Virus record (IMG/VR): IMGVR_UViG_3300027690_000141
Source: a virus
Strand: one strand, 5' to 3'
DNA: 64,000 bases
A program made the translations under genes and the position numbers. The notes below the pieces were generated by a model. That model worked only from the letters and a program-made list of their open reading frames with translations. It was not told the origin of the DNA and did not search any database. Shown one piece after another: positions 2,448 to 58,243 of the stretch (position 1 is its first letter; the number at the start of each line of letters is the position of its first letter).

Positions 2448-3174
2448 CGTCTTTCAACCTCTCAATCATGGCGTCACCGTCCACATTCAAGGACTGCCCC
2501 TGTATCTTTCTCCCTACAGCTAGGTGTCTCTGGACACAGCCAAATTGCATTCCTGTCTCCAGGGCCCGGAGCAAAAACCCCCAATCAGCAGACCGCTTGA
2601 ACCGCGGGTTTTCATCCCACGGAATATTCTCGGATCCGAGATTCCGATGAACGATAGACGCGTGATCAATCCGATTACAGATATTTCTAACCCAATACTC
2701 ATTCCCATCGTCCCACCCATCACAGAGATCGACGACCTGGCCGACAACCGCCATGTCGCTGGACACGAAAAGCAGCTTCATCCAATGGTAGGCCAGGTAG
2801 ACGCCCGGATGCTCATCCAGAAATTCAACCATAACCCGGTTCCGTTGGGGCAAATACAGATCGTCATCGGGCAGATATGAGATATACCGACCCTTGCAGA
2901 CCTTGAGCGCCTTGTTGATAATCATACTCAGTCGGGACGTCTGCAGCCGATCTTCGTAACTCGGCCGCTCCATCAGAACATCGAACTCGTCGAATTTCGC
3001 GGAATAGTCTTTTATCACGGCTTCCGTTCCGTCCGTTGATCCATCATCGCACACGACAACCTGCGTTCTGCCTTGATAATCCTGTTCCACAAGACTCCGA
3101 AAGGCGTCTTTCAAGACTTCCCTCCGGTTCCACGTCGTCACAATGATCGAAATATCCGTACAGAAATCCATCAC
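2401..3174 (-). CDS. Glycosyltransferase family 2 (GT-A)
   Basis: ISIIVTTWNR, VVVCDDGSTDGT, INKALKVCKGRYISYLPDDD (DxD), DWGFLLR. Confidence 0.9.
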   Translation of the reverse strand: MMDFCTDISIIVTTWNRREVLKDAFRSLVEQDYQGRTQVVVCDDGSTDGTEAVIKDYSAKFDEFDVLMERPSYEDRLQTSRLSMIINKALKVCKGRYISYLPDDDLYLPQRNRVMVEFLDEHPGVYLAYHWMKLLFVSSDMAVVGQVVDLCDGWDDGNEYWVRNICNRIDHASIVHRNLGSENIPWDENPRFKRSADWGFLLRALETGMQFGCVQRHLAVGRKIQGQSLNVDGDAMIERLKDGGDAKVDENLFHQPG

Positions 3175-25643: not shown

Positions 25644-26351
25644 CTAGGCCGATTCCGCTGTTGAACGCTTTAAAGCTTTTTCAAAAATCACCAATTCTTT
25701 TCCCCAACTCCTGTAATCAGGAATGATAAAATCATAAATTTGTCTCTCCTGTTCCTCACGCAGATCCAAATCAAGAAAAGCCGCCAAGCGACGGGCTTCA
25801 CCAACCGGGTCTCTTCGGATCCCTTCATAACTCACATTGATTTGCGGCACTTCCAAATGATTTCCCATCAGCCGCCCTAACACAGCCACCTGCTCACCGA
25901 TTTCAACCAGCTCCCTGCCCAATGAAGATTCCAAGCTGTACACCACTTTCTTGTGTGTCAGGAGAGACAGGGCATTCTCCAGCGGGTCTCTGAAGACAAA
26001 AACCAGATAAGGATGACGAATATGCGGCAAGAAAAGATCCAAAGAAAAATGCGTCAAAGCACTCTTCCAGCCAAATAGCTTCTGTCCCGCCCCATGTTTT
26101 TCCAGAAGACGCTTGATTTCATCGGTATACGTCTCCTTCAGCTCACCATCCGGCCTTCCGTCAGCTCGTATCTTCGTGGTGAGAGCGATGAATTCCCGGT
26201 TTTCAAAACTCCCTCCGGGATTCTGTGTCGAAGGATTCCTTTCCGGACACATATCGACGCCCATAAGATGGAGCATGCCGGCAGCCATGGACGTTCCACT
26301 TCGGGCAATTCCCAGAACAATCACCGTCTTCTTTTCATCGCTGGAATTCAC
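25644..26351 (-). CDS. Sulfotransferase family protein
   Basis: VIVLGIARSGTS (5'-PSB loop), WK, FVFRDP (3'-PB), VSYE..RRDP. Confidence 0.85.
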   Translation of the reverse strand: MNSSDEKKTVIVLGIARSGTSMAAGMLHLMGVDMCPERNPSTQNPGGSFENREFIALTTKIRADGRPDGELKETYTDEIKRLLEKHGAGQKLFGWKSALTHFSLDLFLPHIRHPYLVFVFRDPLENALSLLTHKKVVYSLESSLGRELVEIGEQVAVLGRLMGNHLEVPQINVSYEGIRRDPVGEARRLAAFLDLDLREEQERQIYDFIIPDYRSWGKELVIFEKALKRSTAESA

Positions 26352-27367
26352 AAGCTCTCCATTATCCTCTCATAAACAACGCCTTCATCGGCTTTTTGAA
26401 GACAATGCCAACCCCTCCCGCACCGATCTCCATCCTCCCAACACGGCCTGCAACCATGAAGTGTAGCCAAATCAACCACCCTGCAGTGTGGATACCTCAC
26501 CCTGTTCTCCGAAGGAATACACGCAAAAAACGCCACGTTTTTCTTGCCCAACGATCCTGCCATATGCGTCAGTCCGGAATCCGTGCTGACGACAAGCTCG
26601 CACATATCCAACACCGCTGCCAATTCCAACAAACCGGTAGCCCCACACAGGTTGATTACGTTGGATCCCGTCCACCCAACAGACGGATCACCGTCAATCA
26701 AGGCAACCTGCACTCTCTCGCTCAGTTTTTCGATGATTCTCTTTGCTTTAGACAGGGGGAAACTGCGCTGGGCGCTGGCGCCTCGGAGCTGAAAAGCAAC
26801 AAGGGGGCCTCCGGTGTATCCCTTCGAAACAAGGATCTGTTCGGCCATCCTCTTCTCCTTCTCCGAGTAAGCCAGGGCATACCTGTACTCGGTCAGCTCA
26901 AGGCCAAGGAGACGGGCATAGATAGCAGACCGGTGATACTGCTTTCCCCAGCCCGCTCTTTCGGCCCGTTCGAGCGCCAGGTTGAAATCGTAACCGAAAT
27001 CGTAATCCTGGTACTCTACAAGCTTGATTTTAACCGTTTCGATAAGATCAAAATAACGAAACAACGGCTCGTAATGCGGAACCGTCGCAAAAAGCAAACG
27101 GCACAAAGGAAAAAGCTCCTTTATGCGATAGAACATCGGCGTCATTAGAAGAATGTCGCCGACGCTTGAGGTCCGGACCAGGCAAAGGCTGGCTTCCGGA
27201 TTCCGTTGCAAAATCTTGACAACCGACTCGGCAGGCGTGAAGTTCGGAACCGATCTCACGCCTGCCAGATCAATATCGTTTATTGCGAACTGCGGTTTCA
27301 CATAGACAGGCTCCAACTGGCCGTCATAAAAAACCTGAACCAAGCCTGTCTTGTTCTGCCATAACAC
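26348..27367 (-). CDS. Glycosyltransferase family 9 (heptosyltransferase-like)
   Basis: RTSSVGDILLMTP..IKELFP, RSFP, LLELAAVL..VVSTDSGLTHMAGSLGK, C-terminal CRPC..C..C. Confidence 0.9.
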   Translation of the reverse strand: MLWQNKTGLVQVFYDGQLEPVYVKPQFAINDIDLAGVRSVPNFTPAESVVKILQRNPEASLCLVRTSSVGDILLMTPMFYRIKELFPLCRLLFATVPHYEPLFRYFDLIETVKIKLVEYQDYDFGYDFNLALERAERAGWGKQYHRSAIYARLLGLELTEYRYALAYSEKEKRMAEQILVSKGYTGGPLVAFQLRGASAQRSFPLSKAKRIIEKLSERVQVALIDGDPSVGWTGSNVINLCGATGLLELAAVLDMCELVVSTDSGLTHMAGSLGKKNVAFFACIPSENRVRYPHCRVVDLATLHGCRPCWEDGDRCGRGWHCLQKADEGVVYERIMESL

Positions 27368-38128: not shown

Positions 38129-39978
38129 TCAAGTATCCATTTCTCCGTTTCAGGAACTTCCGGATGACCAACAGGTTCTCTCTTTCCTTCCACGTACCCC
38201 ATCCTCGCAGGTGGAGGAGGCGCCGGCTTTCGATAATCCTCCTGTATCTTGTACACTACGGCCGCTACACAGTCCGACACATCCTTTTTGCCCCCTGGTC
38301 TGTGATCAATCTTCGTCTGGTAATCTTCGAGGCTCAACAGGCAGTCGATCACCGGCTGGTAGTAATACATCTTCAGCCTGTCCTCGTAGAGTGCATCCCT
38401 CAGATTCTCGTAAGGCTCCCTGCTCGTATCAACGGACAGATAATCTCCCTTGATCCCTTTGGCCCTCAATATCTGCATCGTGTCTCTGCTCTCAAATCCG
38501 TCCAGGGTCACACTCTCGAACACAAATCCCAATGCCACCAGCTGATAGATCAGCGACCGAAAATCGCCAATGATAATCTCACCGGCCACAGGGGGCGTCA
38601 CCTCCAACATGAAATCGACGTACACCACCGGCATGGATTCCAGCACGGGCTCTCCCAACTCGTAATCGATCCTCTGGACTTGCGTGACTCCGGCCATGTG
38701 CCCCATAGCAAAACCCGCGCTGTCGCCCGTCAACGCCAAATCAATATGAGCATAGCGCCGCGCTCTCGGATTGACTTTCGGCACCATAACCCCTTCATCC
38801 GACTTCTTGCACAGCACCTCCCTCAAGATCCGCCCCTCTTTCAGCGTCGTCATCTCCTGGCTGAACGGGTGCTTCCTGTCCCGGCTGCTGCAGTCGAAAA
38901 TCTTCTCTATGTTCCTGATGAAACGCTCTATCGCTTCAACAGGCTCCCCGGCGATCTCTTGCAAAGCCCCATGAACATCCTTCTTGAACTCATCATAAAA
39001 ATCCATAGGCACATCAATTACTTTCGCGCCTTCAGCAGCTTCCTCGCCATCCTCCAGGACTTTAGCAACCACATCCCCTCTGCCTACTTGCACTCTGAAC
39101 ATCCTGCTGCTGTACGTCCCCGGAGGCCTGTTGCCATACAGACTATACCGCCGCCAGAAAATCCCTTTATTCTCCTCAGCTTCCTGGATCTTTTCTTCCG
39201 TGAATTCATCCGGGTACCTCGAGCTCGACATCATCAAAAGCTTCCCAGGCAAAATTTTGCCCCTCGTCATAAACCTCGACTTGATCCTTCTCGAAAGCGA
39301 CTTATACAGGCTCTTGGCTTGATCAAACACGCCCTTCGTGAACCTGGCCTCTCTCGCCTGGCTCTTCATCACTACGGGAAAGAAATTCACCTCGTCTATG
39401 CACGCTCCGAATATCGTCAACCCAAGAATCGACGTGTCCAGGCTCGAACCGGGAGCAAGCCACACGTTCTTGTCGAACCGCAGCTCCGTCACCAACTGCT
39501 TATCAAACTTGAACTGTTCGTTGAAATACGGGCTCATCTTGATCACGTTCATCAAGTCCTTGAAAATCACGTTCTTCGCCTGCTGCTGCCTGACCGACAG
39601 ATTCACGAAACTGATCGTCGTTCCCGGCTTGAACCCGTACATCTTCGCCGGATCCCTGAAGCATGATACTTGGTAAACCATGTACAGAATCGCCAATTCA
39701 GCGAACGTACTTTTCCCTGACCCAATACTGCCTGCCAGAATCGCCTCGTAGTAATCTCCCTCGAAAAATTCTATCAGATCATCCATGATCCGCGGCCAGA
39801 TCGACTGCCCGACATGGCCCATGAAATATTCGTCCGTCACGAACGTCTCTATGTCGACAGGATTCCACTCGTAATCTATCTCATACAGTTGATTCATAAA
39901 GGCGGGGTCGTCGAGGGCCCTCTCCAGCAAGTCAAGCTCCTGATCTTCCAGATCATACAAGATGCTCTCTACCTTCAT
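38125..39978 (-). CDS. terL: Terminase large subunit
   Basis: Walker A GSIGSGKS, Walker B ACIDEVNF, coupling motif MSS, RNase-H-like HIDLALTGD ... KDVSDCVA; upstream of the portal. Confidence 0.9.
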   Translation of the reverse strand: MKVESILYDLEDQELDLLERALDDPAFMNQLYEIDYEWNPVDIETFVTDEYFMGHVGQSIWPRIMDDLIEFFEGDYYEAILAGSIGSGKSTFAELAILYMVYQVSCFRDPAKMYGFKPGTTISFVNLSVRQQQAKNVIFKDLMNVIKMSPYFNEQFKFDKQLVTELRFDKNVWLAPGSSLDTSILGLTIFGACIDEVNFFPVVMKSQAREARFTKGVFDQAKSLYKSLSRRIKSRFMTRGKILPGKLLMMSSSRYPDEFTEEKIQEAEENKGIFWRRYSLYGNRPPGTYSSRMFRVQVGRGDVVAKVLEDGEEAAEGAKVIDVPMDFYDEFKKDVHGALQEIAGEPVEAIERFIRNIEKIFDCSSRDRKHPFSQEMTTLKEGRILREVLCKKSDEGVMVPKVNPRARRYAHIDLALTGDSAGFAMGHMAGVTQVQRIDYELGEPVLESMPVVYVDFMLEVTPPVAGEIIIGDFRSLIYQLVALGFVFESVTLDGFESRDTMQILRAKGIKGDYLSVDTSREPYENLRDALYEDRLKMYYYQPVIDCLLSLEDYQTKIDHRPGGKKDVSDCVAAVVYKIQEDYRKPAPPPPARMGYVEGKREPVGHPEVPETEKWILE

Positions 39979-40616
39979 GATTCTCGTCCTTCATTCAATA
40001 ATTGCTGCGCCTTTGGCCTCTCGTAAACTCCCCGCTCCGACTTGATCAGCCTGATCACCTGCCGGAGCTTTTCACGTTTCTCGGGCGGCATCTGTTTCAG
40101 CTTGTCGTCAAACCGCAACAGCAACTCCTCGGGCTTCCGATCAACGAGACCCAATTGCGCCTGGATCTCGTAAATCGCCACAAGCGTCGACCTCGCCTCT
40201 TTCACCTCATCCCGCGTCTGCGTCAGCGGCATGCTCACCCCGGCATCCCCCTTCATCGTCTCTTCCAGCTCAAGCCATTTGCAAATGCGATTCACCTGAA
40301 GCTGGTATAAGGTCTCGAGCTCAATCAATGCATCAACCTTCGTCGAAATCTTCTTTATGTACTTGTTCAATTTTGGATTTTTCTTCAGCGCCTCTCTCAG
40401 CAAATAATTGACCTTGGCTATCGTCCATTCCGATGGCTTGCCAATCAGTTTGTTTTTTGCCCGGGTCAAGGCCATATTGAGTGCAGATAGCTTCATGTCA
40501 GTGAAGTATCCCTGCTCCTGAAGGTTCCTCGAAATAGGGAGCACCTGCTCTCCGGACCTCAGCTTCTTCTCAATCTCCGGCCAGAACGGTAAATTATGCA
40601 GATCCTTCTGTTCCAT
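39975..40616 (-). CDS. Putative terminase small subunit
   Basis: Helical, ATGA-coupled to terL; assignment by synteny only. Confidence 0.55.
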   Translation of the reverse strand: MEQKDLHNLPFWPEIEKKLRSGEQVLPISRNLQEQGYFTDMKLSALNMALTRAKNKLIGKPSEWTIAKVNYLLREALKKNPKLNKYIKKISTKVDALIELETLYQLQVNRICKWLELEETMKGDAGVSMPLTQTRDEVKEARSTLVAIYEIQAQLGLVDRKPEELLLRFDDKLKQMPPEKREKLRQVIRLIKSERGVYERPKAQQLLNEGRES

Positions 40617-41440: not shown

Positions 41441-42313
41441 CTATTCTTTCAGTTCGTATCCGCTATACGGCAGATCCATGTCTTTGAACAAAACCTCACT
41501 CCAATCGACCTGGCCTTCCTTGCTCACTTTCACCGCGTTTTTCAGCAACCCGCCTTTCAGATAGAATTCCTCTTCCTGCGCCCTCTCGATCGTGATTCCC
41601 TTTCCCTTCGCCACCTGTCGGATCTTCTCTTTCCCCCGCTTCGTATGCTCATCCACCGCATACTCCGGGATCTCGATCCGCTTGCCTTCCTTCCGTTTCT
41701 TCTGCACGTACCACATGAAATCATCAGCCATTCTGCTCTTTGGCGCCCTGCAGAGATAAAGGATGAGAAACCCGATCTGCTCGGCCGGAACCGGCATCCA
41801 GTTCTTTCCCCTCTCCTTCATTTCCTGAAATCTCGTCTCCAGCCCCTGTCTCACCGCCGAAACCAGCAATACCGCATTCGGATCCGCCAGGCCGATATCT
41901 TCACATGCAATCGTTTGCAGCCGGTGGAGGAGATACCGCCAGTATCCACTATCAATCATCTCCATCGCCCAGTATCCCGCCTCGGCTTCCTTCCCTCTCC
42001 TGATCGATTTTTGGATGGCCGACGTCACTTCGTCCATGGGATATCCACCCTTACTCAACCACGGGTCGTTCCCGCTCTTCCTCGTCCTCTCTTCTTCTTT
42101 CATCTTCCCCTCATTTATCAGAACGTCCTCAATGTGCTTGCAGTTCTGTCCGTTTCCACCATTTTCCCATGTCTGGGCCAACCTCTTTTCGAAATGGGGG
42201 CAGGTGCAGGATGGGGGCTCCAGCCCCACCTCGTAAAACACCTTCTTGTCACTATGACTCCTGACGATGAACTTCCCGTCAGGTCTTTTCGTAATCAGAC
42301 TGCTCTCTTCCAT
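41441..42313 (-). CDS. SWIM Zn finger fused to an MgsA/RarA C-terminal-like domain (no ATPase)
   Basis: YEV...SCTCP...CKHI (SWIM); SAIQKSIRRG...A.YW..M...RL..IACEDIGLADP.A...YLCRAPKSR...IPEYAVD.HT. Confidence 0.8.
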   Translation of the reverse strand: MEESSLITKRPDGKFIVRSHSDKKVFYEVGLEPPSCTCPHFEKRLAQTWENGGNGQNCKHIEDVLINEGKMKEEERTRKSGNDPWLSKGGYPMDEVTSAIQKSIRRGKEAEAGYWAMEMIDSGYWRYLLHRLQTIACEDIGLADPNAVLLVSAVRQGLETRFQEMKERGKNWMPVPAEQIGFLILYLCRAPKSRMADDFMWYVQKKRKEGKRIEIPEYAVDEHTKRGKEKIRQVAKGKGITIERAQEEEFYLKGGLLKNAVKVSKEGQVDWSEVLFKDMDLPYSGYELKE

Positions 42314-42380: not shown

Positions 42381-42416
42381 AAAAAAGCACGAAAAATCAA
42401 CGCCTTATGCTTTTTT
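42381..42416 (-). terminator. Possible terminator ending the sugar operon
   Basis: AAAAAAGCA...TGCTTTTTT inverted repeat overlapping the SDR stop; large loop. Confidence 0.4.
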
Positions 42417-43367
42417 TATCTCAGCTTCCAAGATCTCTTCGATTAGCTCATCAAAGCTAATCTGCAATTTCCAGCCAAGCTTTGACAATCTCCAAATATC
42501 TGCTACCGGCCAACCCGTGCCACATCGGGCATTTTCGAACACAACAACATCGTCTACCGGTGGAGCGTTCTCTATCTGCAATAAACCTGCTCCCAGCTCA
42601 TACGCACGCTTCACGATACTGTACACATTTCTCCGCATCCCCGAGCCGATGACATAATCCGTGTTCTCTCCCTTCTCCATGATCAAAACCATCGCTTCAG
42701 CAACGTCACGGGCATGCAAAAAATCACGCACGTCTAATCGGCTCTTCATTTCTATCGGTTTCTTAACCTTCCCAAATTCAGCCAGCTCCCGGCACACCCT
42801 CACAACCTCTCTCGCCACACGCACCAACAGGTAATCACCTTTCTGAACTGCTGATGAATGATTGAATGGAATCGCCGCGGCTACGTGAAGGCCGTATCTC
42901 CTGTACACCCGGGCCATCATCAGGCCGGCCGCCTTTGTCGCCCCGTAAAAATCAGTTGGATTCAATGCTGTCCGCTCGCTTTGAGGACCCGCGGCGTACT
43001 CCCCAAACACATTGTCCGATCCCACATAAAGCACTTTGACCTTTGGATTAAACCTCCTGACAGCCTCCAGCACATTCAACGTGCCCATCACATTCACTTC
43101 CACCATTCCTCGTGCATGCGTATCCGCCATCTTTGGATCCGCAACTGCCGCCAGGTGATAAATCTCCTCCACCTTACACGTCTCCAGCGCTCGCCGAATT
43201 GCCTCAAAATCCATGATGCCACCCGAAAACCGACCCCCTACCCTCTCCACATTGTCCGGGCCCTCAACAATATCAAGTCCGTACAGCACGTAACCCTTGG
43301 CACTCAGGATCTCAGCCAGCCAGTACCCATCCTGGCCCGCATAACCAGTAATCAACACGCTTTTCAC
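42405..43367 (-). CDS. NDP-sugar SDR, GDP-mannose dehydratase (Gmd)/Rmd family
   Basis: VLITGYAGQDG, YHLAA, YGATK (YxxxK), FNH, RDFLHARDVAEAM; VGSDNVFG lacks the Gmd Glu; GTGA overlap with the ParB stop. Confidence 0.85.
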   Translation of the reverse strand: MKSVLITGYAGQDGYWLAEILSAKGYVLYGLDIVEGPDNVERVGGRFSGGIMDFEAIRRALETCKVEEIYHLAAVADPKMADTHARGMVEVNVMGTLNVLEAVRRFNPKVKVLYVGSDNVFGEYAAGPQSERTALNPTDFYGATKAAGLMMARVYRRYGLHVAAAIPFNHSSAVQKGDYLLVRVAREVVRVCRELAEFGKVKKPIEMKSRLDVRDFLHARDVAEAMVLIMEKGENTDYVIGSGMRRNVYSIVKRAYELGAGLLQIENAPPVDDVVVFENARCGTGWPVADIWRLSKLGWKLQISFDELIEEILEAEIKKA

Positions 43368-44095
43368 ACTTTCACCCCCGTATCTCTTTCCAACAGATTG
43401 TTCATGTACACGTTGACGTCCGTCTTTCTCTCCAGGCACTCTTCCACAATACGATCGATATTCTTCTTCGTCCTGTCCGTCATTTTCACCATCAAGTGGT
43501 CTTGCCCTCCATACCGGAACACCAGAAAGCTCTGTTTCAACTGCTCGCCATGCTGGGCAAAGATCCGTTTGATAATCCGCGCCAGCGACTCCACGTCCTC
43601 TATCTCACCTTTCGACTTGTCCAACCGGTCCACAATCTCAGGGGGAAGCGACTTCCGGATATCCCTATACAGATTTTTCCAGGCTCTCTCGCTCACCAGC
43701 CCCATCTGCGAGCGCAAATAATCGGGGTCGTACTGCTTCCTGAGCCGGTTAAACAGCCTTGTGAACTTAAACGGATTCAGTCTGCCCCTGATCACGTTCT
43801 CTCGTATCAACCGGATCTTGCGCTCATTCTCCGACAGCTCTTGAACGACGCAGGGCACTTTCGTCATGCCAAGCACTCTTCCTGCAGCGACCCGGTGAGC
43901 CCCCGCTACGATCCAAAACCCATCCTCCTTGAATTGAACCACCCTCACCGGATCAATAAAACCGTGCTCCTTGATCTCTTCCACCAAAGCAGCAAAAATC
44001 TCCGGCTCTTCCTCGTTCGGATTCTCCTCGTCCGCATACAACTGATCGATCGGAATCCAGACAATATCAACCTTTGGAACTTCTTCCGCCATCAC
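43364..44095 (-). CDS. ParB/Srx N-terminal domain protein
   Basis: IPIDQL...NPN...LVEEIKEHGFIDPV...IVAGAHRV.A...VPCVV...EN.IRG. Confidence 0.85.
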   Translation of the reverse strand: MMAEEVPKVDIVWIPIDQLYADEENPNEEEPEIFAALVEEIKEHGFIDPVRVVQFKEDGFWIVAGAHRVAAGRVLGMTKVPCVVQELSENERKIRLIRENVIRGRLNPFKFTRLFNRLRKQYDPDYLRSQMGLVSERAWKNLYRDIRKSLPPEIVDRLDKSKGEIEDVESLARIIKRIFAQHGEQLKQSFLVFRYGGQDHLMVKMTDRTKKNIDRIVEECLERKTDVNVYMNNLLERDTGVKV

Positions 44096-44103
44096 GACCT
44101 CAT

Positions 44104-45147
44104 CTATCTATATTCGAGCCAATGTCGATGCGCCGGGTCCGCAATCCACGCTACAGTTTTTTCAAGCGACCTCTCAAACGATACAGGCGGCTCCCATTCC
44201 ATCAGCAGCATCTTATCGCCGCTCAACGAATAACGCAGATCATGCCCCGGACGGCTGCTGTGGAAGTCCACCATCTCGTACCGAAGCGGTTTCCCTAGAA
44301 CGTCCGCGATCAACTGCGCCATTTCGAGATTCGAGACCTCTCTTTCGCCAACCACGTTATACTTCTCCCGCGACACAAACCTTGGCACCAAATACCTGGC
44401 AGCGGCCGCTACGTTCCGACAGTGGATATAAAACCGGGACCCCGCTTTCGTTCTCGTCGCGTCCGAATGAATCGTCACAGTCTCGCCGGCCAGAATCTTT
44501 TTCACACACTGGGGAATGAACTTTTCCGGGTGCTGCCTTTCGCCAAAGTTGTTCATCGTGTGCGTGATAAACACCGGCAACCTGTACGTATTCGCCCAAG
44601 CCAGACAGAGCTCTTCGGCGCCCGCCTTGGTCGCCGAATACGGGTTTGTCGAGTTGTACCGGTCCCACTCGTAATACGTTTCGTGACCTTCTAGACAAGT
44701 TCCCCGACGCCAGTAAATGACCGTCTGCACGGCAGGCCCGAACACTTCATCGGTCGAAAAATAATGGAAAACAGTCAGCCGTGGCAGTTTCCTCGCAAAA
44801 TTCAACATATGCATCGTCCCAACGACATTGGACATCACAAACGGCTCCGGGTCAGCGATCGACTTATCCACATGCGTCTCCGCCGCCAGGTGGAAAATCA
44901 CTTCTGTCCCCGACAGCTCCTCAATCAATCCATCGGCGATCGGCCTTGTAATATCGGCTGTGAAGATCCTGACCCTCTTGTTGTCGTACGCCTCGATATC
45001 CCTTATCCTGTCCAACTTCATCGAGGCGTATGTCAGCTTGTCAATGATATCGATTTCCCAATCCGTGTTTTTCAGGAAATCCTCCACGAAATGGTGTCCA
45101 ACAAAACCACAGCCGCCCGTTATCACCACACGCTTTGCCATAATCAT
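44104..45147 (-). CDS. rfbB: dTDP-glucose 4,6-dehydratase (RmlB)
   Basis: TGGCGFVG, DKLTYA, HLAAETHVDKSI, STDEVFG, YSATKAG, NNFG..Q.PEKFIP, RPGHDLRY. Confidence 0.92.
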   Translation of the reverse strand: MIMAKRVVITGGCGFVGHHFVEDFLKNTDWEIDIIDKLTYASMKLDRIRDIEAYDNKRVRIFTADITRPIADGLIEELSGTEVIFHLAAETHVDKSIADPEPFVMSNVVGTMHMLNFARKLPRLTVFHYFSTDEVFGPAVQTVIYWRRGTCLEGHETYYEWDRYNSTNPYSATKAGAEELCLAWANTYRLPVFITHTMNNFGERQHPEKFIPQCVKKILAGETVTIHSDATRTKAGSRFYIHCRNVAAAARYLVPRFVSREKYNVVGEREVSNLEMAQLIADVLGKPLRYEMVDFHSSRPGHDLRYSLSGDKMLLMEWEPPVSFERSLEKTVAWIADPAHRHWLEYR

Positions 45148-45158
45148 CGCCTTTCATC

Positions 45159-45235
45159 TGGGAGCGGGGACGGGATTCGAACCCGCGATTGCCGGCTTAT
45201 GAGACCAGCGGCTTAGACCCCTTGCCTACCCCGCA
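45159..45235 (-). tRNA. tRNA with CAU anticodon (Met/fMet-like, atypical)
   Basis: TGCGGGG/CCCCGCT acceptor stem, GGC/GCC D-stem, CTCATAA loop, GCGGG-TTCGAAT-CCCGT T-arm, encoded CCA. Confidence 0.9.
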
Positions 45236-45246
45236 TCCAATTACTC

Positions 45247-46416
45247 CTACAACGCCTTAATCGTCCTCTTGTACTCCTGCACGATCACTCCCACCATGTA
45301 CTCGATTTGGTCCGTCATGAGCGCCCCGTAGCACGGAAACATCAGTACATGCGTCGATGCGTACTCCGCCATCGGGCATTTGAAACCCAGCTCCTTGTAC
45401 ATCGGCTGAACGTTCATCGGCCAGAACGGGGGAATCAGCGCTACCCCCCGGCTTTCAATCCGAGTCGTCATCTCATCGAACTGTTCTATCGTTTTGAGCC
45501 CATGAAACATCAACGGAAACTGATAGTAACAATGACCCGGATAATCCTTCATCCAGCTTACGCGGTCCTCTTCGGCCAGATCCGCACAGAGCACTTCCAG
45601 GATCGTTCGCCAACTCGCAGCAGCCTGCCGCCTTCGCTCTATGTTCTTCTGCAGGTTCCGTATCTGCGATAATCCGAACGCCGCAGCCACGTTGCTTATC
45701 TCGTAGTTATACCCGATTACTGGCAGGTCCCGGTACCTCGATACCGTTGAATCGTTATGCAGACCAAGATCGCTGTAGAACTTGACCAACCTCAACAAAT
45801 TTGGATCATCCATCACACAACCACCGCCTGTACCAAGCGACGTCAGCATCTTGTCTCCCCGGAATGAATAACATCCAATCACTCCGAGCGTTCCCTGGTA
45901 TTCATCTGGCCACCTCGGGCCCCGGTATTTGCCACCAGCGTTCTCACACGCATCCTCTATGAACGGAACCCCTTGCTTCTGGCAAACCTCAATCACCTCC
46001 TGCTTGCACGAACTGCCGTACAAGTGAGTAACCAAGACCAGTCGCTTTCGGCTTCGATACAGATACAGCGCCTCCTCGACCTTCTCCGGGTCCATTCCGT
46101 ACGTCTCGTACTCGCAGTCCACGAAAACAGGCGTAGCACCCACGTAGCTCACCGGGAACACGGTGGGCGAACACGTGTACGCAGGCACCAGCACCAGCCA
46201 ATCCTTATCGATCCCCAGCGACAACAGCGCACAATGAATAGCGCCTGTCCCTGACGACAGCGGCCATGCGTACTCCTTGCCCACGTATTCCGCCCAAGCA
46301 TTCCCAAATTCAGCCAGTTTCGGACCCCTGGGCGACATGATATTCGATTTGATCGCATCGACCGCAGCCTGCACGTCCTCTTGGTCGTAATCAATGTGGT
46401 GAAACGGTACCTTCAT
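45247..46416 (-). CDS. DegT/DnrJ/EryC1/StrS sugar aminotransferase (perosamine synthase/VioA-like)
   Basis: SSGTGAIHCAL, VGATPVFVD, THLYG, IEDAC, YSFRGDK (PLP Lys), GYNY, LMFPCY..L. Confidence 0.92.
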   Translation of the reverse strand: MKVPFHHIDYDQEDVQAAVDAIKSNIMSPRGPKLAEFGNAWAEYVGKEYAWPLSSGTGAIHCALLSLGIDKDWLVLVPAYTCSPTVFPVSYVGATPVFVDCEYETYGMDPEKVEEALYLYRSRKRLVLVTHLYGSSCKQEVIEVCQKQGVPFIEDACENAGGKYRGPRWPDEYQGTLGVIGCYSFRGDKMLTSLGTGGGCVMDDPNLLRLVKFYSDLGLHNDSTVSRYRDLPVIGYNYEISNVAAAFGLSQIRNLQKNIERRRQAAASWRTILEVLCADLAEEDRVSWMKDYPGHCYYQFPLMFHGLKTIEQFDEMTTRIESRGVALIPPFWPMNVQPMYKELGFKCPMAEYASTHVLMFPCYGALMTDQIEYMVGVIVQEYKRTIKAL

Positions 46417-46627
46417 ATTCCTTTCTCCTTTCAGTCTTGAATTCTCTTGTCGGCTTTCTCAGCAGCTTCTCGATAAACCAGACTCTCTTCCTTAACGTTG
46501 ACGCATAACGCATCAGCCTCTCTTTCACTTGAGGCGTAAGCTCGTCATATCTATCAAGCCTTTTAATCCATTCCCAATCACCTGTATCGTCTCCTTTTCT
46601 CCTGCTCCTGTCTCTTCCATTCCCCAT
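46391..46627 (-). CDS. Hypothetical basic protein
   Basis: Start refined to MGNGRD after GGAGG. Confidence 0.45.
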   Translation of the reverse strand: MGNGRDRSRRKGDDTGDWEWIKRLDRYDELTPQVKERLMRYASTLRKRVWFIEKLLRKPTREFKTERRKEYEGTVSPH

Positions 46628-46641
46628 CAAAAGACCTCCTT

Positions 46642-47394
46642 TCACCTTTCCATCTGCTCCACCACGACCAACCGAAACCTGCCGTGCTTCTCGATCCATC
46701 CTTTGAACACCGGCATGTGCTGCGCAGTCAAATCGATCAACAGCGTCACAGGCGCCACCAGCCACCACAGCCATTTCGGTGTCCGAACGAACAACGCCCG
46801 GTCAATCACGTTCGCCGTAATACCTTTCAATTTTAGATGTACATGCAGATCGTTTTTCGCTATCCACAGCGCCTCAACCAAAAATTCGTCCCATGTGATC
46901 GGATGCTTGTAGTCCAGCCCAACCTGATACCAAGGAGACTCCATCCTCAGGTCCTCAAAAAGCACCGTCACAGGAGCCACCGCCATAATCGACGCCAACG
47001 CTTTCTTCCAATCGTTCGTACACTCCAACACGCTGCACACCACGGCGACATCAGGCGTCCATGCTTTGACCAAATTGACTTCAGGCAGCAGCTCGATATC
47101 CACGCCGGGTACATACATCAATCGATCAGCTACACGCTCCTTGTTTCGCCCGTAATCGAATCGATCCACACCCATGACGTAACACGCGAACTTCTGAATC
47201 AACCACAAATCCAGCCAGCAATCCCCGCAGCCAGCGTCCAAAATCGTTTTTCCTCTCAACAAATTTTCAACCCGCTTGAAACAGTGTTTGATCAGCGTCT
47301 TGCTGTACCAGTCCTTCCATCTGTCCAGATACCACGTGGACCCTTCTCCCAAATCCGCACGGTTCTTCCAGTATGTTTCGCTCTTTGCCGGCAT
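46642..47394 (-). CDS. Class I SAM-dependent methyltransferase
   Basis: ILDAGCG, VMGVD, VCSVLEC. Confidence 0.85.
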   Translation of the reverse strand: MPAKSETYWKNRADLGEGSTWYLDRWKDWYSKTLIKHCFKRVENLLRGKTILDAGCGDCWLDLWLIQKFACYVMGVDRFDYGRNKERVADRLMYVPGVDIELLPEVNLVKAWTPDVAVVCSVLECTNDWKKALASIMAVAPVTVLFEDLRMESPWYQVGLDYKHPITWDEFLVEALWIAKNDLHVHLKLKGITANVIDRALFVRTPKWLWWLVAPVTLLIDLTAQHMPVFKGWIEKHGRFRLVVVEQMER

Positions 47395-47412
47395 GTATCG
47401 TCCTCCTTTATA

Positions 47413-47426
47413 TACTACCAGTAGTA
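47413..47426. promoter_or_regulatory. Palindrome TACTACCAGTAGTA, candidate operator
   Basis: Intergenic, just upstream of TATATA and the AAGGAGG RBS; 13/14 match to 1400-1413. Confidence 0.4.
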
Positions 47427-47454
47427 AATTTTCCCAACGAACAAAATCATTGAC

Positions 47455-48903
47455 CTACTTTACGATCGGAACAAACCTCGGATACTCCGTCTCGCAGTCA
47501 TCCACCCAGCCGTCCGGTACGAAGCTCCTGTAAATCCTGATCGGGTAAATCCCCTTGATCCCACCGACCCAGCGCCTCTGGATGATCTTCTTCCCCCGCA
47601 CTCGCTCTATCGCGTCCAAGAGGACCGGGAACGATACAGGCGGGTCGATGCTTTCCAAGGCCTTCTTCACCAGATCCACAGTCTCTTGCGCCCACTTGTA
47701 CCCCTTCTCCACTTCACCGCCACATCTTCTCCTCGATTCGGCAATCTCCCACATCCGATGCGCCGATCCAAGCTTATCCATCTTTTGCTTCACCCATTCC
47801 CTGGTACCGCAGTCGTCAAACCGCTTTTTCGCTTCATCGTAGCTCTCATAAATCCACCGGAGCATGGCCGCGCACTCATCGTCCGTATCGAACAGAAAAG
47901 GATACCCTGGCGGGTACATCAGCTCTTCCTCTGGATAATGATACTTCTTGAACAACACGATCACATCACCGTACATCCACTCGTACGGTGCAGCAGCCCC
48001 AGGGTTCAGCTGATAAAAGATCGCCACATGGCACGATTTCATCACTTTCATCGCATCCAGATACGGCAGATCCCGTAACACCTGGACCGACTCCTTGGCG
48101 CCGTAACTCTTCAAAACCTGATCAAGCCTCGCCGCTCCTCCTACCGCAGTCACGTAAATATCCACGTCCCTGCCTGCCATCATCAGCTGCAAATACTGCC
48201 TGACCGACTTCTCGCCCCCCTTCGTGTTCGTGAACCGGCCTCCCCAATACAGCGAGAACTTCTCGTTCTTCTCCACCTTCAGACTGTCCAACTCTTCACA
48301 ATCGGGCCCCATCATCACCTCAGATCTCGTCTCCAGAAACCGCTTCACCATCTCCGACGAACAATACCCTCTGACCAACTCCGTGTGCCTTCCCGTACAA
48401 TACGGGCAACACGAAATCCAATCCGTGCTTGCCAGCGCCAAAGCCCGGGCATGGATCGGAAACATATCGTCGTTCACAACCCAGTTCGTCTCCGACCATT
48501 CCAAAATCGTCGGATATCCGTTCCAATGGACCACAGGCGTATACTCCCAAAACCGTCTCGCCGAAAACCAATCCCTAAGCATCAGCGCCAAGTAACAATC
48601 ATTCGACATGATCATGTCCACGAACTTCTCGTCCGCGGCCCCCCGAAACTCCCTCTGGATAGCATCCATCACCATGTAATGCTGGTGGAGGTTTGTTCTC
48701 GGACTATCGCCGAATGAGAACTTGATCAGCTTCACCCTGGGCATGGGGGGAGGCTGGTACATATCCGGAAGCACCCAATACGTAAAATAACCCCGTTCGA
48801 CAGCCGCCTTCACCATATACAGGGCATACAAATAGCATGAGTCGCCGCGCCAATGATCACCACGCGGCGCATCCATTATCTGCGTCATCAGAACTCGAGC
48901 CAC
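47455..48903 (-). CDS. Divergent GT-B glycosyltransferase
   Basis: C-terminal half SLYWGGRFTNTKG, LPY...MKSCHVAIF, PYEWMY.DVIVL resembles the GT-B nucleotide-sugar-binding domain. Confidence 0.65.
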   Translation of the reverse strand: MARVLMTQIMDAPRGDHWRGDSCYLYALYMVKAAVERGYFTYWVLPDMYQPPPMPRVKLIKFSFGDSPRTNLHQHYMVMDAIQREFRGAADEKFVDMIMSNDCYLALMLRDWFSARRFWEYTPVVHWNGYPTILEWSETNWVVNDDMFPIHARALALASTDWISCCPYCTGRHTELVRGYCSSEMVKRFLETRSEVMMGPDCEELDSLKVEKNEKFSLYWGGRFTNTKGGEKSVRQYLQLMMAGRDVDIYVTAVGGAARLDQVLKSYGAKESVQVLRDLPYLDAMKVMKSCHVAIFYQLNPGAAAPYEWMYGDVIVLFKKYHYPEEELMYPPGYPFLFDTDDECAAMLRWIYESYDEAKKRFDDCGTREWVKQKMDKLGSAHRMWEIAESRRRCGGEVEKGYKWAQETVDLVKKALESIDPPVSFPVLLDAIERVRGKKIIQRRWVGGIKGIYPIRIYRSFVPDGWVDDCETEYPRFVPIVK

Positions 48904-49106
48904 TATATCTTTTCCTCGTCGACCGGAATTTCTTTGCTCAACATCGATTCCATCTTATCTAACGCCCCGATCACCGCTTGTAGCCTTCTCCTCGAAACCC
49001 GCCAACGCTCGCCGATCATCAGATCGGAAAGAATTCTCTTCGCAGCTCGTACTTTGACCAAATTGGCCAAAAGCACATACTCGTTTTCGTTCACCCCCAA
49101 CGCCAT
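48903..49106 (-). CDS. Hypothetical protein
   Basis: 67-aa ORF abutting the GT start. Confidence 0.45.
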   Translation of the reverse strand: MALGVNENEYVLLANLVKVRAAKRILSDLMIGERWRVSRRRLQAVIGALDKMESMLSKEIPVDEEKI

Positions 49107-49143
49107 CCCCTCTTATACTAAACAAATTGCCTCTCGGGATTTT

Positions 49144-49521
49144 TCACTTCAACAAGATATACCAGGACTTATTCCCCAAACTCCGCCCCAACTCCATCAC
49201 ATGCTTGATTTGGTGTCGTTTCCATCCTCTCGGAAACGCCAAAGCATCAGTTCTGATAGGCTCCGAACCTTGCTTCGTCTCCAACGCCTTCAAAGCTCTC
49301 TTGGCAGCCCGTTCTTTCCCCTCTCTAAGACTGAATCGAGATTTGTCCAACGCACTGCAAATCGCCACGCCGACTCCCACTTCGTTGCTAACGTTAATCG
49401 TACAAACCACGTGACTCGGCTGCTGCACATGAAACTTTACCTTATTTGGCTCTACAGCCAAAATCTTTTCGATCACTTCCTTGCTCAATTTCCTCATCCA
49501 CTTGCTATCATTCCCCTTCAT
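49144..49521 (-). CDS. Hypothetical phage protein
   Basis: Start refined to MKGNDS; GVAIC...D..F....G...A..RAL pattern. Confidence 0.55.
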   Translation of the reverse strand: MKGNDSKWMRKLSKEVIEKILAVEPNKVKFHVQQPSHVVCTINVSNEVGVGVAICSALDKSRFSLREGKERAAKRALKALETKQGSEPIRTDALAFPRGWKRHQIKHVMELGRSLGNKSWYILLK

Positions 49522-49759
49522 CACAAACCCCCTCTCTAACCTCAACATCCCTTTTCCTTGGACGAAACGACCACGCCGGCAATAAATCCCTCGTCCCGTC
49601 TTCATACAGCAACTCGCCACCTCCATACACATACGATGGCGGTCCCCAAACGATGACATCCACAACTTTTTTAAACTCCTGCGTACTCCCGACCACTCGA
49701 CAATACTTGCCCCGCCACCAATTCAAATACCTGTCTCGTGCGTCATCAATTCCTGCCAT
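49508..49759 (-). CDS. Hypothetical protein
   Basis: 83-aa ORF overlapping both neighbours. Confidence 0.5.
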   Translation of the reverse strand: MAGIDDARDRYLNWWRGKYCRVVGSTQEFKKVVDVIVWGPPSYVYGGGELLYEDGTRDLLPAWSFRPRKRDVEVREGVCDEGE

Positions 49760-51011
49760 TTCCTATCATCCTCACGGTCGGATTCGCTCTCTCCTTCTGC
49801 AGCACATCCATCGCCTTCAACAAAATCGCCTTCGGGACCCCCTGACGCTCGGCCGCAGTCACCGAAAAATGCGAATCAGCCGAATACTTCCAATCCAAGT
49901 TAATAAAGCTAGCCACATTCACCACCCAGTAATCAATCTCGGTCATCGCCTCCGCTTCACGAATGGTCTTCTCCATCGCCTTGACGTCGCCATCGTAATA
50001 GCTCCCAAAAAGCAGGTATCCCACCAGCGTAAACCCGTGCTTTTTGAACGACCGGACAGCCTTCGCGATGTCGGCCACACTCTGCCGCTTGTCCATGGCC
50101 TTCAAAACCTTATCGTCCAGGGCCTCGATCCCCAGCTTGACCGTACGCACACCGACATCCTTCAGCGCCTCCGCCATCTCATCGCTCAAATCAATCAGCC
50201 GACTCTCACACGTGAACTGGTACGAAAAATGCTTTAATAATCTACCTATTTGTTTTACATGCGAAATTCGTGCAGGAAAACACATGTCGTTGATGTACAG
50301 CGCGTTTCTTTTCGTACCGAGTATACGGGTGTGGACATCCCGGACAAAATTCTCTGCACTTCGATACCACACCTCTTTCCAAATCACAGGCGTGTAACAA
50401 AAATTGCACTTAAACGGACACCCAAACCTGCTCAAAATGTAGTCCGTACTCTGCCCTGCCGGGTAAACATACTGAAATTCCGGCAACATATCTTCCAGGG
50501 GCCTGCCCTCTCTCGTCTGTTCAAATTTCGTCACCATATCCACCAGGCTCTCATTCACCGGCCCCACGAAAAACCCGTCAAACGGCTCCCTGAACGGATA
50601 CGGGTCTCTCGTAAACTGTGGTCCAATTCCGAACACCTTCGCGTATTTGCTAATCTTTTCAGCTACATGAAACGCGATATACGGGCTTCCCAAATTCTTG
50701 GTCGGAATGTAGTTGTCTCCGGCCGCCACAACCACGACTCCCGGCTCGAACTGCATCACTTCTTCCACGCACTGATCAATCACAGGCGACTTCCCATCAC
50801 AGGCAGCCTGATACATTTCCTGGTTCTCGAACAACACTCGCCATGGCAAATAGACCGGTGTTCCGCTATAATCACCGTTCACAACCACATGCTCGACACC
50901 GGCCTCGGCCAAAAATCGACTTGCGTAACACAGCTCCAGGCCGATCCTGTCATTATGCGACCCAGCCGCTTTCAGAAACGGGGCCTGCAGCAATACGACA
51001 CGCTTCTTCAT
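49746..51011 (-). CDS. B12-binding radical SAM protein (class B-like)
   Basis: N-terminal cobalamin-binding-like region (LGSPY..H.AE), SRFGCPFKCNFC (CX3CX2C), YRSAENFV, CESR, KLGIEA.DD.VL..M.K; start refined after AGGAGGT. Confidence 0.88.
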   Translation of the reverse strand: MKKRVVLLQAPFLKAAGSHNDRIGLELCYASRFLAEAGVEHVVVNGDYSGTPVYLPWRVLFENQEMYQAACDGKSPVIDQCVEEVMQFEPGVVVVAAGDNYIPTKNLGSPYIAFHVAEKISKYAKVFGIGPQFTRDPYPFREPFDGFFVGPVNESLVDMVTKFEQTREGRPLEDMLPEFQYVYPAGQSTDYILSRFGCPFKCNFCYTPVIWKEVWYRSAENFVRDVHTRILGTKRNALYINDMCFPARISHVKQIGRLLKHFSYQFTCESRLIDLSDEMAEALKDVGVRTVKLGIEALDDKVLKAMDKRQSVADIAKAVRSFKKHGFTLVGYLLFGSYYDGDVKAMEKTIREAEAMTEIDYWVVNVASFINLDWKYSADSHFSVTAAERQGVPKAILLKAMDVLQKERANPTVRMIGNGRN

Positions 51012-57554: not shown

Positions 57555-58055
57555 CTACTTCCTCCAGATTATGTGATACATCATGTACTTCGCTTGAAAA
57601 AACTTCTTGGCATGCTCCGCCACGCTTTCCGGGTCGTACTTTCCACAGCTGAACACATCCAGGTAAGCCGCATTCTCCCGCTCGACAAAATGACCGGACA
57701 CCAACGATGTTTCAATCAGCTGTACCATGGAATACCCCTTCACCCTCTCATCTTCTCCGAAATGCACCACCTGGCACGGCCCATATCGTTTGGCCAGCAG
57801 CAAATCATCACACAGTTCCTCCACATACTGCCGGATACTCTCTTCTTCTCGAACTGCACACGGATTGCAGCAATGTAAATCAATACTCGTCAATTTTCCC
57901 CAAGGAACAACATCGTCCCTAAGCGATTTCACCTGCTTCTCGCGTCCAAGACAACAGCTACAGCCCTCCATCTTGAACCGGTCATCCAGCACATGCCAAT
58001 CACCACAGCTACAAAACATCCCTATCCTTCCAAACTGATTTTCTCTGTCCTTCAT
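57555..58055 (-). CDS. speD: S-adenosylmethionine decarboxylase proenzyme (pyruvoyl)
   Basis: WG...IDLH.C, VHFG..GYSMVQLIET|SLVSGHF, YLDVFSCG.YD. Confidence 0.85.
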   Translation of the reverse strand: MKDRENQFGRIGMFCSCGDWHVLDDRFKMEGCSCCLGREKQVKSLRDDVVPWGKLTSIDLHCCNPCAVREEESIRQYVEELCDDLLLAKRYGPCQVVHFGEDERVKGYSMVQLIETSLVSGHFVERENAAYLDVFSCGKYDPESVAEHAKKFFQAKYMMYHIIWRK

Positions 58056-58243
58056 TTCGAGCCTCCCTTCCTTTCGAACTCCCGGCAACCCCTTTGCATC
58101 GGAAATCGGCCGCAACCTTTAAGCAAGCACTTTCTGAAGGATTGTTCGCAGAGATGAGAATCCGCCCTGGCTGACTGCCGAAAATTCACCAGGTACTTGC
58201 AATCTCCGCATCGAATAGGCTTCCTTTCCTGATTCCGCTTCAT
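58052..58243 (-). CDS. Small Cys-rich protein, paralog of 54331-54495
   Basis: CGDC...HLCEQSFRKCLLKGCGRFPMQRGCREFE. Confidence 0.65.
   Translation of the reverse strand: MKRNQERKPIRCGDCKYLVNFRQSARADSHLCEQSFRKCLLKGCGRFPMQRGCREFERKGGSK

Follow-up and report, generated by a model that had tools for sequence, protein, structure and literature searches.

A glycosyltransferase-ParB module with an amino-sugar cassette upstream of the terminase genes of a sediment phage: a candidate for DNA glycosylation without a recognizable base-activating enzyme

A cassette of sugar-modifying genes was analyzed in a 64,000-nucleotide stretch of viral DNA (the window), taken from the reverse strand of the IMG/VR "provirus" record IMGVR_UViG_3300027690_000141 (95,663 bp; estimated to be 64% complete). 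The same DNA was found among the Logan assemblies, on a 103.8 kb contig of a sediment metagenome, and the gene boundaries of the cassette are the Logan gene calls converted to window coordinates. Nearly all of the genes of the window lie on the minus strand. The cassette spans positions 42405-51011 and contains, in order of transcription, genes for a radical S-adenosylmethionine (rSAM) enzyme, three small open reading frames (ORFs), a glycosyltransferase (GT), a methyltransferase, a DegT aminotransferase, an RmlB-like dehydratase, a ParB_N protein and a short-chain dehydrogenase/reductase (SDR) (Table 1). A preliminary description of this DNA had named seven genes in a co-oriented cluster about 2 kb upstream of the terminase genes; all seven were recovered at those positions on the minus strand by gene calling and by Pfam, PHROG and NCBIfam searches, and the cluster ends 1.8 kb upstream of TerS/TerL. 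The TerS-like and TerL genes are located 1.8 to 2.4 kb downstream of the cassette end, with three small ORFs and the gene for a SWIM/MgsA_C protein in between. The module consists of two layers, a conserved GT-ParB(-MgsA_C) core that is present in many unrelated phages and a set of genes for tailoring of a donor sugar.

Table 1. Genes of the cassette, of its surroundings and of the virion region (window coordinates)
Feature	Length (aa)	Position	Strand	Evidence or context
Cobalamin-type (class B-like) rSAM enzyme	421	49746..51011	minus	Radical_SAM 1.1e-17; CxxxCxxC present
Three small ORFs	83, 134, 67	48903..49759	minus	called genes; no Pfam, PHROG or NCBIfam match
GT4-type GT-B glycosyltransferase	482	47455..48903	minus	phrog_30253 glycosyltransferase 4e-12
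Class I SAM-dependent methyltransferase	250	46642..47394	minus	Methyltransf_23 1e-4, below cut-off
ORF overlapping DegT start	78	46391..46627	minus	called gene; no Pfam, PHROG or NCBIfam match
DegT/DnrJ/EryC1-family PLP sugar aminotransferase	389	45247..46416	minus	PF01041 228 bits, full length
RmlB-like NDP-hexose 4,6-dehydratase	345	44104..45141	minus	190 bits to solved dTDP-glucose 4,6-dehydratase (RmlB) 8du1
ParB/Srx-like protein	242	43364..44092	minus	ParB_N 43 bits, 4.7e-11; phrog_26387 7e-53
Gmd/Rmd-like extended SDR	320	42405..43367	minus	GDP_Man_Dehyd 1e-51; best structure matches Gmd and Rmd
SWIM zinc finger and MgsA_C (RarA C-terminal-like) protein	290	41441..42313	minus	MgsA_C 1.1e-12, SWIM 1.5e-4
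Small terminase candidate (TerS)	213-216	39975..40616	minus	overlaps TerL start; feature neighbours: Terminase_5, Mu gp27, DUF2280 clusters
TerL	617	38125..39978	minus	PF27249 MJ0330_N on called gene; first gene of packaging/head module
GT9		26348-27367	minus	directly after Gp23-like capsid gene
Sulfotransferase		25644-26351	minus	directly after Gp23-like capsid gene, with GT9
GT2-GT9 fusion		21235-22932	minus	among tail genes
GT2		2401-3174	minus	among tail genes

The GT was highly divergent in sequence, scoring 16.9 bits against the Pfam Glycos_transf_1 profile and hence failing to reach the gathering cut-off of 26.4. An AlphaFold2 (AF2) model (pLDDT 86) exhibited the two Rossmann domains of a GT-B enzyme of the GT4 type, in agreement with the divergent GT-B assigned to this gene in the preliminary description, and its top matches (Foldseek, VIA) were BshA, MshA and PimA. 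The model aligned to BshA over 349 residues with a Z score of 27.3 and an rmsd of 3.0, to PimA, WaaG and PglA with Z scores of 22-23, and to the GTs of Arthrobacter phages with TM scores of 0.75-0.79. A catalytic core (approximately residues 1-395) is followed by a family-specific C-terminal domain (approximately residues 403-482). Only 12 close homologues of the GT, and 11 of the rSAM enzyme, were present among 5.8 billion clusters; of 1.84 billion representatives searched with a GT profile, 288 matched at E ≤ 1e-3 and 150 at E ≤ 1e-10. No close relatives of the GT were found in viral_contigs or genome_contigs, and a megablast search with the cluster against phages returned nothing. The members of the family are mostly 450-510 aa long and align end to end, and in an alignment of eight GTs, which extended over the full length, the C-terminal domain was common to all. 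As judged from these alignments, the GT is a member of a distinct family, roughly 470-500 aa in length, with an extra C-terminal domain.

The ParB-like gene overlaps the following SDR gene by 4 bp. Its product had solved ParB/Noc proteins as the best PDB matches and viral ParB_N proteins as structure neighbours in the Atlas. A G-x-H-R motif, which is the sulfiredoxin or "ParB nuclease" form, was invariant in seven orthologues at the position where canonical ParB has the CTP-binding GERR, and the C-terminal half of the protein was conserved. A tblastn search against 50,697 phage records yielded 15 full-length matches, and a homologous GT was located one or two genes upstream of ParB in every group of matches that was opened. 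The ParB-like gene was beside or near a GT in 13 of the 15 contexts examined, the other two being truncated or unclear. This linkage is to the GT and not to the terminase, because in one head-module relative (G003, related through portal and capsid) the GT-ParB pair is located about 15 kb from TerL, among replication genes. From this synteny, ParB is considered a conserved partner of the GT and not a bystander. A complex prediction for GT and ParB returned a score of 0.00, which gives no verdict and has no weight either way on binding. The MgsA_C and SWIM domains are two further DNA-associated domains accompanying the cassette. MgsA_C genes adjoin the cassette, in varying positions, in contig groups L004, L015 and L036, the L036 protein being 43% identical over 153 aa. 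Weak MgsA_C-like matches were also present by the cassette of Vibrio phage KarBoss and by the second GT of phage DanielleIgnace.

The gene set was repeated in five groups of metagenomic contigs (L004/L005, L006, L007, L015 and L037), none of them near-identical to the record, and the arrangement is therefore not due to chance. The order rSAM-GT-methyltransferase-DegT-ParB-SDR was observed in L004/L005 and L006. In L015 the order was MgsA_C-methyltransferase-rSAM-GT-methyltransferase-DegT, followed by two unannotated genes, and L007 contained a cassette with extra methyltransferases and with FemAB-like and PRMT-like genes. Two distant members of the GT family, L036 and L037, were picked for their distance and not for their context. 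The first had the order NTP_transferase-GT-x-MgsA_C-x-ParB_N, and the second flavin reductase-DegT-rSAM-methyltransferase-GT-GT-ParB-ParB-TerS-TerL-T4 portal; the L037 rSAM enzyme was 29% identical over its full length, and this locus is a deeply diverged version of the cassette.

The GT and ParB genes were also found together in cultured phages. The order was GT-ParB-x-methyltransferase in the Arthrobacter AK phages, SLOG-GT-x-ParB-TerS-terminase in the Rhodobacter RcF phages and Agrobacterium JP1, PIG-L-SDR-DegT-methyltransferase-x-x-GT-x-ParB-TerS-TerL in Stenotrophomonas DLP5 and DLP_3, and SDR-DegT-x-GT4-ParB-x-TerL in Vibrio phage KarBoss, although all of the KarBoss genes are annotated as hypothetical. 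The "DprA-like" gene directly upstream of the GT in RcTiptonus (gene 20; L009 5630-6019) and JP1 (JP1_003) encodes a SLOG/YAcAr nucleotide-binding domain. The KarBoss locus (vB_VibS_KarBoss, PQ758715.1, 29285-39779; L019) additionally contained a homologue of the DLP5 methyltransferase and candidates for TerS/TerL, an architecture of the Delepquintavirus type. The possibility of a single methyltransferase family across all carriers was rejected, as the DLP5 and KarBoss methyltransferases were unrelated by BLAST to that of the cassette. No member of the GT-B family was present in the closest head-module relative, G001, which has a capsid protein 72% identical and a capsid-adjacent GT9 54% identical to those of the record. 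Its TerL gene is directly preceded (G001:C1:2046-5460; L032) by the gene of a ParB homologue with 35% identity that Pfam did not detect, by two genes without annotation and by a DegT-like gene of divergent sequence, which would be either a reduced ParB-linked module or a different one.

The donor-tailoring genes encode the components of an amino-sugar pathway. An AF2 model of the rSAM enzyme (pLDDT 81) exhibited an N-terminal Rossmann-like domain and an rSAM core, and was closest to TsrM, MgmA, AprD4 and OxsB (alignments of approximately 440-520 columns). Pfam searches detected no match to the B12-binding domain PF02310 in this protein at E ≤ 0.01; distant rSAM homologues (P0030 and P0031) do carry this domain. 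The preliminary description of a B12 rSAM enzyme thus holds for the modelled fold, which is nearest to cobalamin-type enzymes, and not for the profile match. AprD4 itself has a B12-type domain without cobalamin. The enzyme may be a sugar C-methylase or an AprD4-like sugar dehydratase, and may also have a role at the acceptor. The three small ORFs that separate its gene from that of the GT are not conserved, and in L004 the GT comes directly after the rSAM gene. Orthologues of the methyltransferase (30-45% identity) with clear Methyltransf_23 matches were present in L004, L006, L007 and L015, and this enzyme probably methylates the sugar on N or O. For DegT, the best NCBIfam matches were LegC and PseC, both below cut-off, and the nearest solved structures were perosamine synthases and PglE; the enzyme is probably the 4-aminotransferase of a nucleoside diphosphate (NDP)-4-keto-6-deoxyhexose.

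Both catalytic motifs of the RmlB-like enzyme, STDE and YSATK (YxxxK), align with those of 8du1, and the preliminary description of an intact RmlB was correct in this respect. A score of 256.8 bits against TIGR01181 fell short of the equivalog cut-off of 365.1, so that the nucleotide specificity is not fixed. The RmlB-like gene was not present in L004 or L006 and, from this distribution, is taken to be a lineage-specific addition to the cassette. For the SDR, the best matches were Gmd and Rmd, as the preliminary description had proposed, but the catalytic Glu of the dehydratases is replaced by Asn (SDN here, SDS and SND in orthologues, compared with STDE in RmlB); this enzyme is, therefore, probably an NDP-keto-sugar reductase or epimerase and not a dehydratase. 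All of the NCBIfam equivalog scores for the sugar-pathway genes were below cut-off and, hence, the identity of the sugar is not assignable. The enzyme set is nevertheless predicted to be able to make an NDP-4-amino-4,6-dideoxyhexose that is then methylated, consistent with the amino-deoxysugar suggested previously. As the cassette contains no nucleotidylyltransferase, the NDP-hexose must come from the host. In L007 (4702-5664), the cassette adds a homologue of PRMT5/PrmA-like arginine methyltransferases and a FemAB-like (Acetyltransf_6) gene by the GT, which might hint at a protein or peptide substrate.

We infer the following order of steps. The RmlB-like enzyme would dehydrate a host NDP-hexose to an NDP-4-keto-6-deoxyhexose, which DegT would aminate at C4 to give an NDP-4-amino-4,6-dideoxyhexose; the SAM methyltransferase would then methylate the amino sugar. 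The cobalamin-type rSAM enzyme would C-methylate the sugar or dehydrate it as AprD4 does, and the Glu-less SDR would reduce or epimerize the keto intermediate. The GT4 enzyme would transfer the finished sugar together with ParB, and probably also with the MgsA_C protein. The cassette immediately precedes the packaging genes in the same orientation and is, therefore, presumably expressed late. The likeliest acceptor is proposed to be the DNA of the phage itself, which would receive the sugar once replicated, either ahead of packaging or in the course of it, with ParB as the DNA-side partner by analogy with the ParB-dependent phage thymine dioxygenases. This reading draws on the recurrence of the cassette, on the pairing of the GT with ParB across carriers, on the C-terminal domain common to the GTs, on the DNA-associated MgsA_C and SWIM domains and on the published DNA-modification systems described below. 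It also draws on Stenotrophomonas DLP_3, whose one reported GT domain is that of the cassette and whose DNA resists all 15 of the restriction enzymes tested (Peters et al., PMC7326821). We consider that phage DNA may well be the acceptor of the GT, with a likelihood slightly short of even. A narrower proposal, which we regard as rather doubtful, is that GT4-ParB(-MgsA_C) glycosylates DNA without a hydroxy(methyl)pyrimidine, either by direct attachment to base or backbone or after activation by the ParB/Srx-like protein or the rSAM enzyme, and that the sugar in this phage is a methylated 4-amino-4,6-dideoxyhexose.

A number of observations weigh against DNA as the acceptor. To our knowledge, phage DNA glycosylation has so far always started from a hydroxyl-bearing base (5-hydroxymethylcytosine [5hmC], 5-hydroxymethyluracil [5hmU] or 5-hydroxycytosine). 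Such bases are made by a thymidylate-synthase-like enzyme or a TET/JBP dioxygenase. In addition to the phage's own record, profile searches covered the cultured phages DanielleIgnace, RcTiptonus, JP1, DLP5, DLP_3, KarBoss and RcZahn, with a profile set that varied by phage. With the Tet_JBP profile (PF12851), no match was obtained up to E = 10 for the phage itself, or up to E = 1 for seven cultured phages, of which six are GT-ParB carriers and the seventh is RcZahn. The thymidylate-synthase-like profile PF00303 likewise had no match in the record or in the eight phage records to which it was applied, and a TGT profile had none in the record or in those cultured carriers that were searched with it. 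DLP_3 had no ThyA-like or TET/JBP gene in these searches. The earlier observation that no hydroxymethylase or TET enzyme is visible was thus borne out and extended to the 95.7 kb record and the tested cultured carriers; the search of the rest of the record for a base-activating enzyme, which the preliminary description had called for, was negative for Tet_JBP, PF00303 and TGT. As none of these enzymes was found, the module fits neither known route to glycosylated DNA. Outside the cassette, the record encodes a DUF6094 methyltransferase, an SNF2 helicase, HNH nucleases, SprT and a GHKL ATPase, none of which would prepare a base. There were no unannotated ORFs of at least 200 aa in the cassette, and PHROGs gave nothing relevant for those elsewhere in the record. 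Genes for a DNA polymerase or for nucleotide metabolism were not observed either in the 95.7 kb record, the completeness of which is estimated at 64%.

The proteins themselves provided further points on this side. The C-terminal domain of the GT gave weak winged-helix-like matches (TM 0.5-0.63) and does not keep its charge between homologues, and the pI values of the GT core and of ParB are in the acidic to neutral range (5.5-6.8). The usual substrates of GT4 enzymes are lipids, small molecules and glycans. Cargo genes are also commonly inserted in the region upstream of the terminase. The resistance of DLP_3 DNA to restriction enzymes may have a source other than the DLP_3 cassette. Arabinosyl-5-hydroxycytosine was rejected as an explanation for DLP_3, since the "DLP3" of PMC13326640 is an Acinetobacter T4-like phage and not vB_SmaS_DLP_3, which has no ThyA-like gene. 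Taken as a whole, the preliminary interpretation, in which a methylated amino sugar would be transferred to DNA, possibly during packaging and as a shield against restriction or CRISPR, is partly supported by these analyses: the support concerns the sugar pathway, the ParB partner, the gene neighbourhood and the missing hydroxymethylase or TET enzyme, and the DNA acceptor, the timing and the shielding role are proposals.

One alternative is glycosylation of a protein, the sugar being placed by the GT4 enzyme or by the GTs of the virion region onto the capsid, the tail, the portal, a terminase-associated protein or ParB. Next to the capsid gene are genes for a GT9 and a sulfotransferase, and the tail region contains a GT2 gene and a GT2-GT9 fusion gene, which makes virion glycosylation likely in its own right; the cassette and the late genes are also co-oriented, and a GT and a ParB that are not basic are in keeping with a protein acceptor. 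Mycobacteriophage virions are reportedly glycosylated by GTs encoded next to capsid genes, as is said to have been described by Freeman and colleagues in 2023. The GT9 was kept after the capsid gene in the relatives G001, G003 and L028, and G003 had both sets of GTs. The preliminary description had offered donor supply for the virion GTs as its own alternative, and this was weakened by several observations. Wherever enough DNA was available, the cassette GT was tied to ParB and MgsA_C and not to structural genes; DLP_3 is reported to have a single GT domain, that of the cassette (PMC7326821); the tailoring genes of KarBoss and DLP5 are located in the cassette of the GT; and G001 retains the capsid-adjacent GT9 without a GT-B, which indicates that the virion and cassette sets of GTs are inherited independently. 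A Ser/Thr-rich tract was looked for in the structural proteins and none was found. We consider a protein acceptor to be unlikely, though a serious contender. A less probable alternative is that the cassette is cargo for modification of the envelope or a small molecule, acting on lipopolysaccharide (LPS), a surface glycan or a metabolite for superinfection exclusion or lysogenic conversion, with ParB nearby through the terminase only. BshA, MshA, PimA, WaaG and PglA, the nearest structures, act on small molecules, lipids or glycans, and the phage looks temperate from its IMG/VR provirus class and its repressor-like helix-turn-helix (HTH) genes. Modification of the host membrane or LPS was also proposed by the DLP5 and DLP_3 authors (PMC7326821 for DLP_3). 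However, the cassette contains no flippase, polymerase, acyl or undecaprenyl-linked enzyme or membrane protein, the GT model shows no predicted membrane anchor, and the cassette is situated between early and packaging genes, away from the repressor/lysogeny genes. The pairing with ParB moreover spans phages of Actinomycetota, Alphaproteobacteria and Gammaproteobacteria and persists even at about 15 kb from TerL, and envelope modification is, on balance, improbable.

It is also conceivable that DNA is modified in a pathway started by the rSAM enzyme, which would activate the base in place of an oxygen-dependent TET/JBP enzyme and would suit a host in anoxic sediment. The sample was a sediment metagenome, and the rSAM gene was kept with GT and ParB in L004, L006, L007, L015 and L037. 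The GT4-ParB pair was, however, present without rSAM in DLP5/DLP_3, KarBoss, RcF, JP1, Arthrobacter AK, G003 and L036 and, as most carriers of the pair have no rSAM, is independent of it. Furthermore, rSAM was always found alongside DegT and the methyltransferase, as a sugar-tailoring enzyme would be, and the sugar diol-dehydratase AprD4 was among its closest structures. Base activation by the rSAM enzyme in this phage is accordingly very improbable, and replacement of TET by rSAM is unlikely as a general answer.

If DNA is the target, then the acceptor chemistry would be new and a positively charged, methylated sugar would join the list of DNA modifications, with a bearing on evasion of restriction and CRISPR and on DNA-labelling tools. 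Glycosylation without a hydroxy(methyl)pyrimidine, if true, would add a new chemical class to the known DNA modifications, and one present in the cultured phages DLP_3/DLP5, KarBoss, RcF, JP1 and Arthrobacter AK. If instead a protein is the target, the module would be a ParB-partnered protein glycosylation system, which is equally undescribed. The question is open to direct test, as several carriers are cultured on tractable hosts.

Elsewhere, the phage encodes a Gp23-like capsid protein, a prohead protease and a portal of the T4 type, together with a lambda-J-like tail protein of 3,747 aa. TerL was 40-45% identical to the TerL of relatives, where it is likewise upstream of a T4-type portal. 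A reading of the TerS-like protein as a hidden dioxygenase was rejected: its features are small-terminase-like, and none of the folds matched by a low-confidence Atlas model (pTM 0.33) was dioxygenase-like. The replication/lysogeny region contained repressor-like HTH genes, a DnaC-like loader, SSB and an SbcCD-like pair. Outside the window (G000:C1:13716-14729), the DUF6094/N6-methylase-like methyltransferase gene was located between two HNH_3 endonuclease genes, by the SNF2 helicase gene. Approximately 6.5 kb upstream of the cassette, at 57555-58115 on the minus strand, an S-adenosylmethionine decarboxylase (AdoMet_dc, PF02675) is encoded. Aminopropyl groups are donated by decarboxylated SAM. 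One published DNA-hypermodification cluster is described as including a polyamine aminopropyltransferase (10.1101/2023.12.21.572611). The whole window exhibited a strong, uniform strand bias, with a plus-strand GC skew of about -0.3 and a G-rich coding strand. A scan for promoters and terminators detected sites no commoner than expected by chance, and PADLOC detected nothing except the generic ParB_N part of ParB-methyltransferase fusions.

The closest precedents for the pairing of GT and ParB are the 5mYOX-ParB-GT clusters. A phage thymine dioxygenase is activated on double-stranded DNA by a ParB-like protein (O'Toole et al. 2026, PMC13229309), and the genes most often found next to phage 5mYOX genes are those for GTs (31%), ParBs (27%) and terminases (19%) (PMC13229309). 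Phage GTs glycosylate 5hmC in DNA, some of them depending on a partner sugar epimerase (Pyle et al., 10.1101/2023.12.21.572611). A ParB near the terminase in DNA-modification loci, to which the preliminary description had appealed, is thus a published hallmark (PMC13229309; 10.1101/2023.12.21.572611). As in the 5mYOX clusters, a ParB-like protein and a GT are located together beside terminase genes in the present phage and are accompanied by accessory sugar-tailoring SDRs and methyltransferases, and the modification would be post-replicative. In contrast to those clusters, homologues of 5mYOX, of C5-methyltransferases and of thymidylate synthase were found neither in this phage nor in the cultured carriers that were tested, ParB has GxHR in place of GERR and a conserved C-terminal half in place of a long disordered linker, and the donor pathway (dehydratase, aminotransferase and rSAM) is far more elaborate, the DNA target here being a proposal. 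The gene logic is partly anticipated by published surveys, the new elements being the absence of a base oxidase and an unusually rich amino-sugar pathway.

A second group of relatives by fold is formed by the GTs of the 5-hydroxycytosine phages Acinetobacter DLP3, RB69, HY126 and RL38J1, which in PMC13326640 are BshA-like GT4 enzymes, predicted to be DNA arabinosyltransferases and assayed in vitro. These share with our GT the GT-B/GT4 fold and the top solved matches (3mbo BshA, 6kih, 7fg9, 7qsg and 2gej), and the GT of phage HY126 (9iqz) matched our model with a Z score of 20.2. They differ in that 5-hydroxy-dCMP is made before replication by a thymidylate-synthase-like enzyme in phages with their own replication machinery, neither of which was found in the present record; within the passages covered by the search, no C-terminal domain or ParB partner is described for these GTs, and the paper contains no mention of ParB.

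The cassettes of the Delepquintavirus phages DLP5/DLP_3 and of KarBoss are similar in their GTs, which are alignable end to end, in their ParB proteins (27-30% identical), in having SDR, DegT and a methyltransferase upstream and TerS/TerL downstream, and in belonging to siphovirus genomes of about 95 kb. They have neither an rSAM nor an RmlB-like gene, their methyltransferase is not detectably related to that of the present cassette, and a PIG-L deacetylase is present; ParB, unlike in those phages, is embedded here between sugar genes. With the pathways to NDP-4-amino-4,6-dideoxyhexoses (RmlB/Gmd with perosamine synthase, PglE or DesI), the cassette shares an intact 4,6-dehydratase, a perosamine-synthase-like DegT and a methyltransferase, and with the AprD4/AprD3 deoxygenation pair it shares an rSAM enzyme whose modelled fold is close to AprD4 and a reductase-like SDR. 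Unlike the NDP-amino-sugar pathways, it includes no nucleotidylyltransferase, and its genes adjoin the terminase genes of a phage. Mycobacteriophage virion glycosylation reportedly also involves phage-encoded GTs and methyltransferases that are expressed together with late genes, and in the present phage too GTs are encoded right after the capsid gene. The mycobacteriophage GTs, however, are within the structural operon and have no ParB partner, whereas this cassette is located upstream of the terminase genes, together with ParB.

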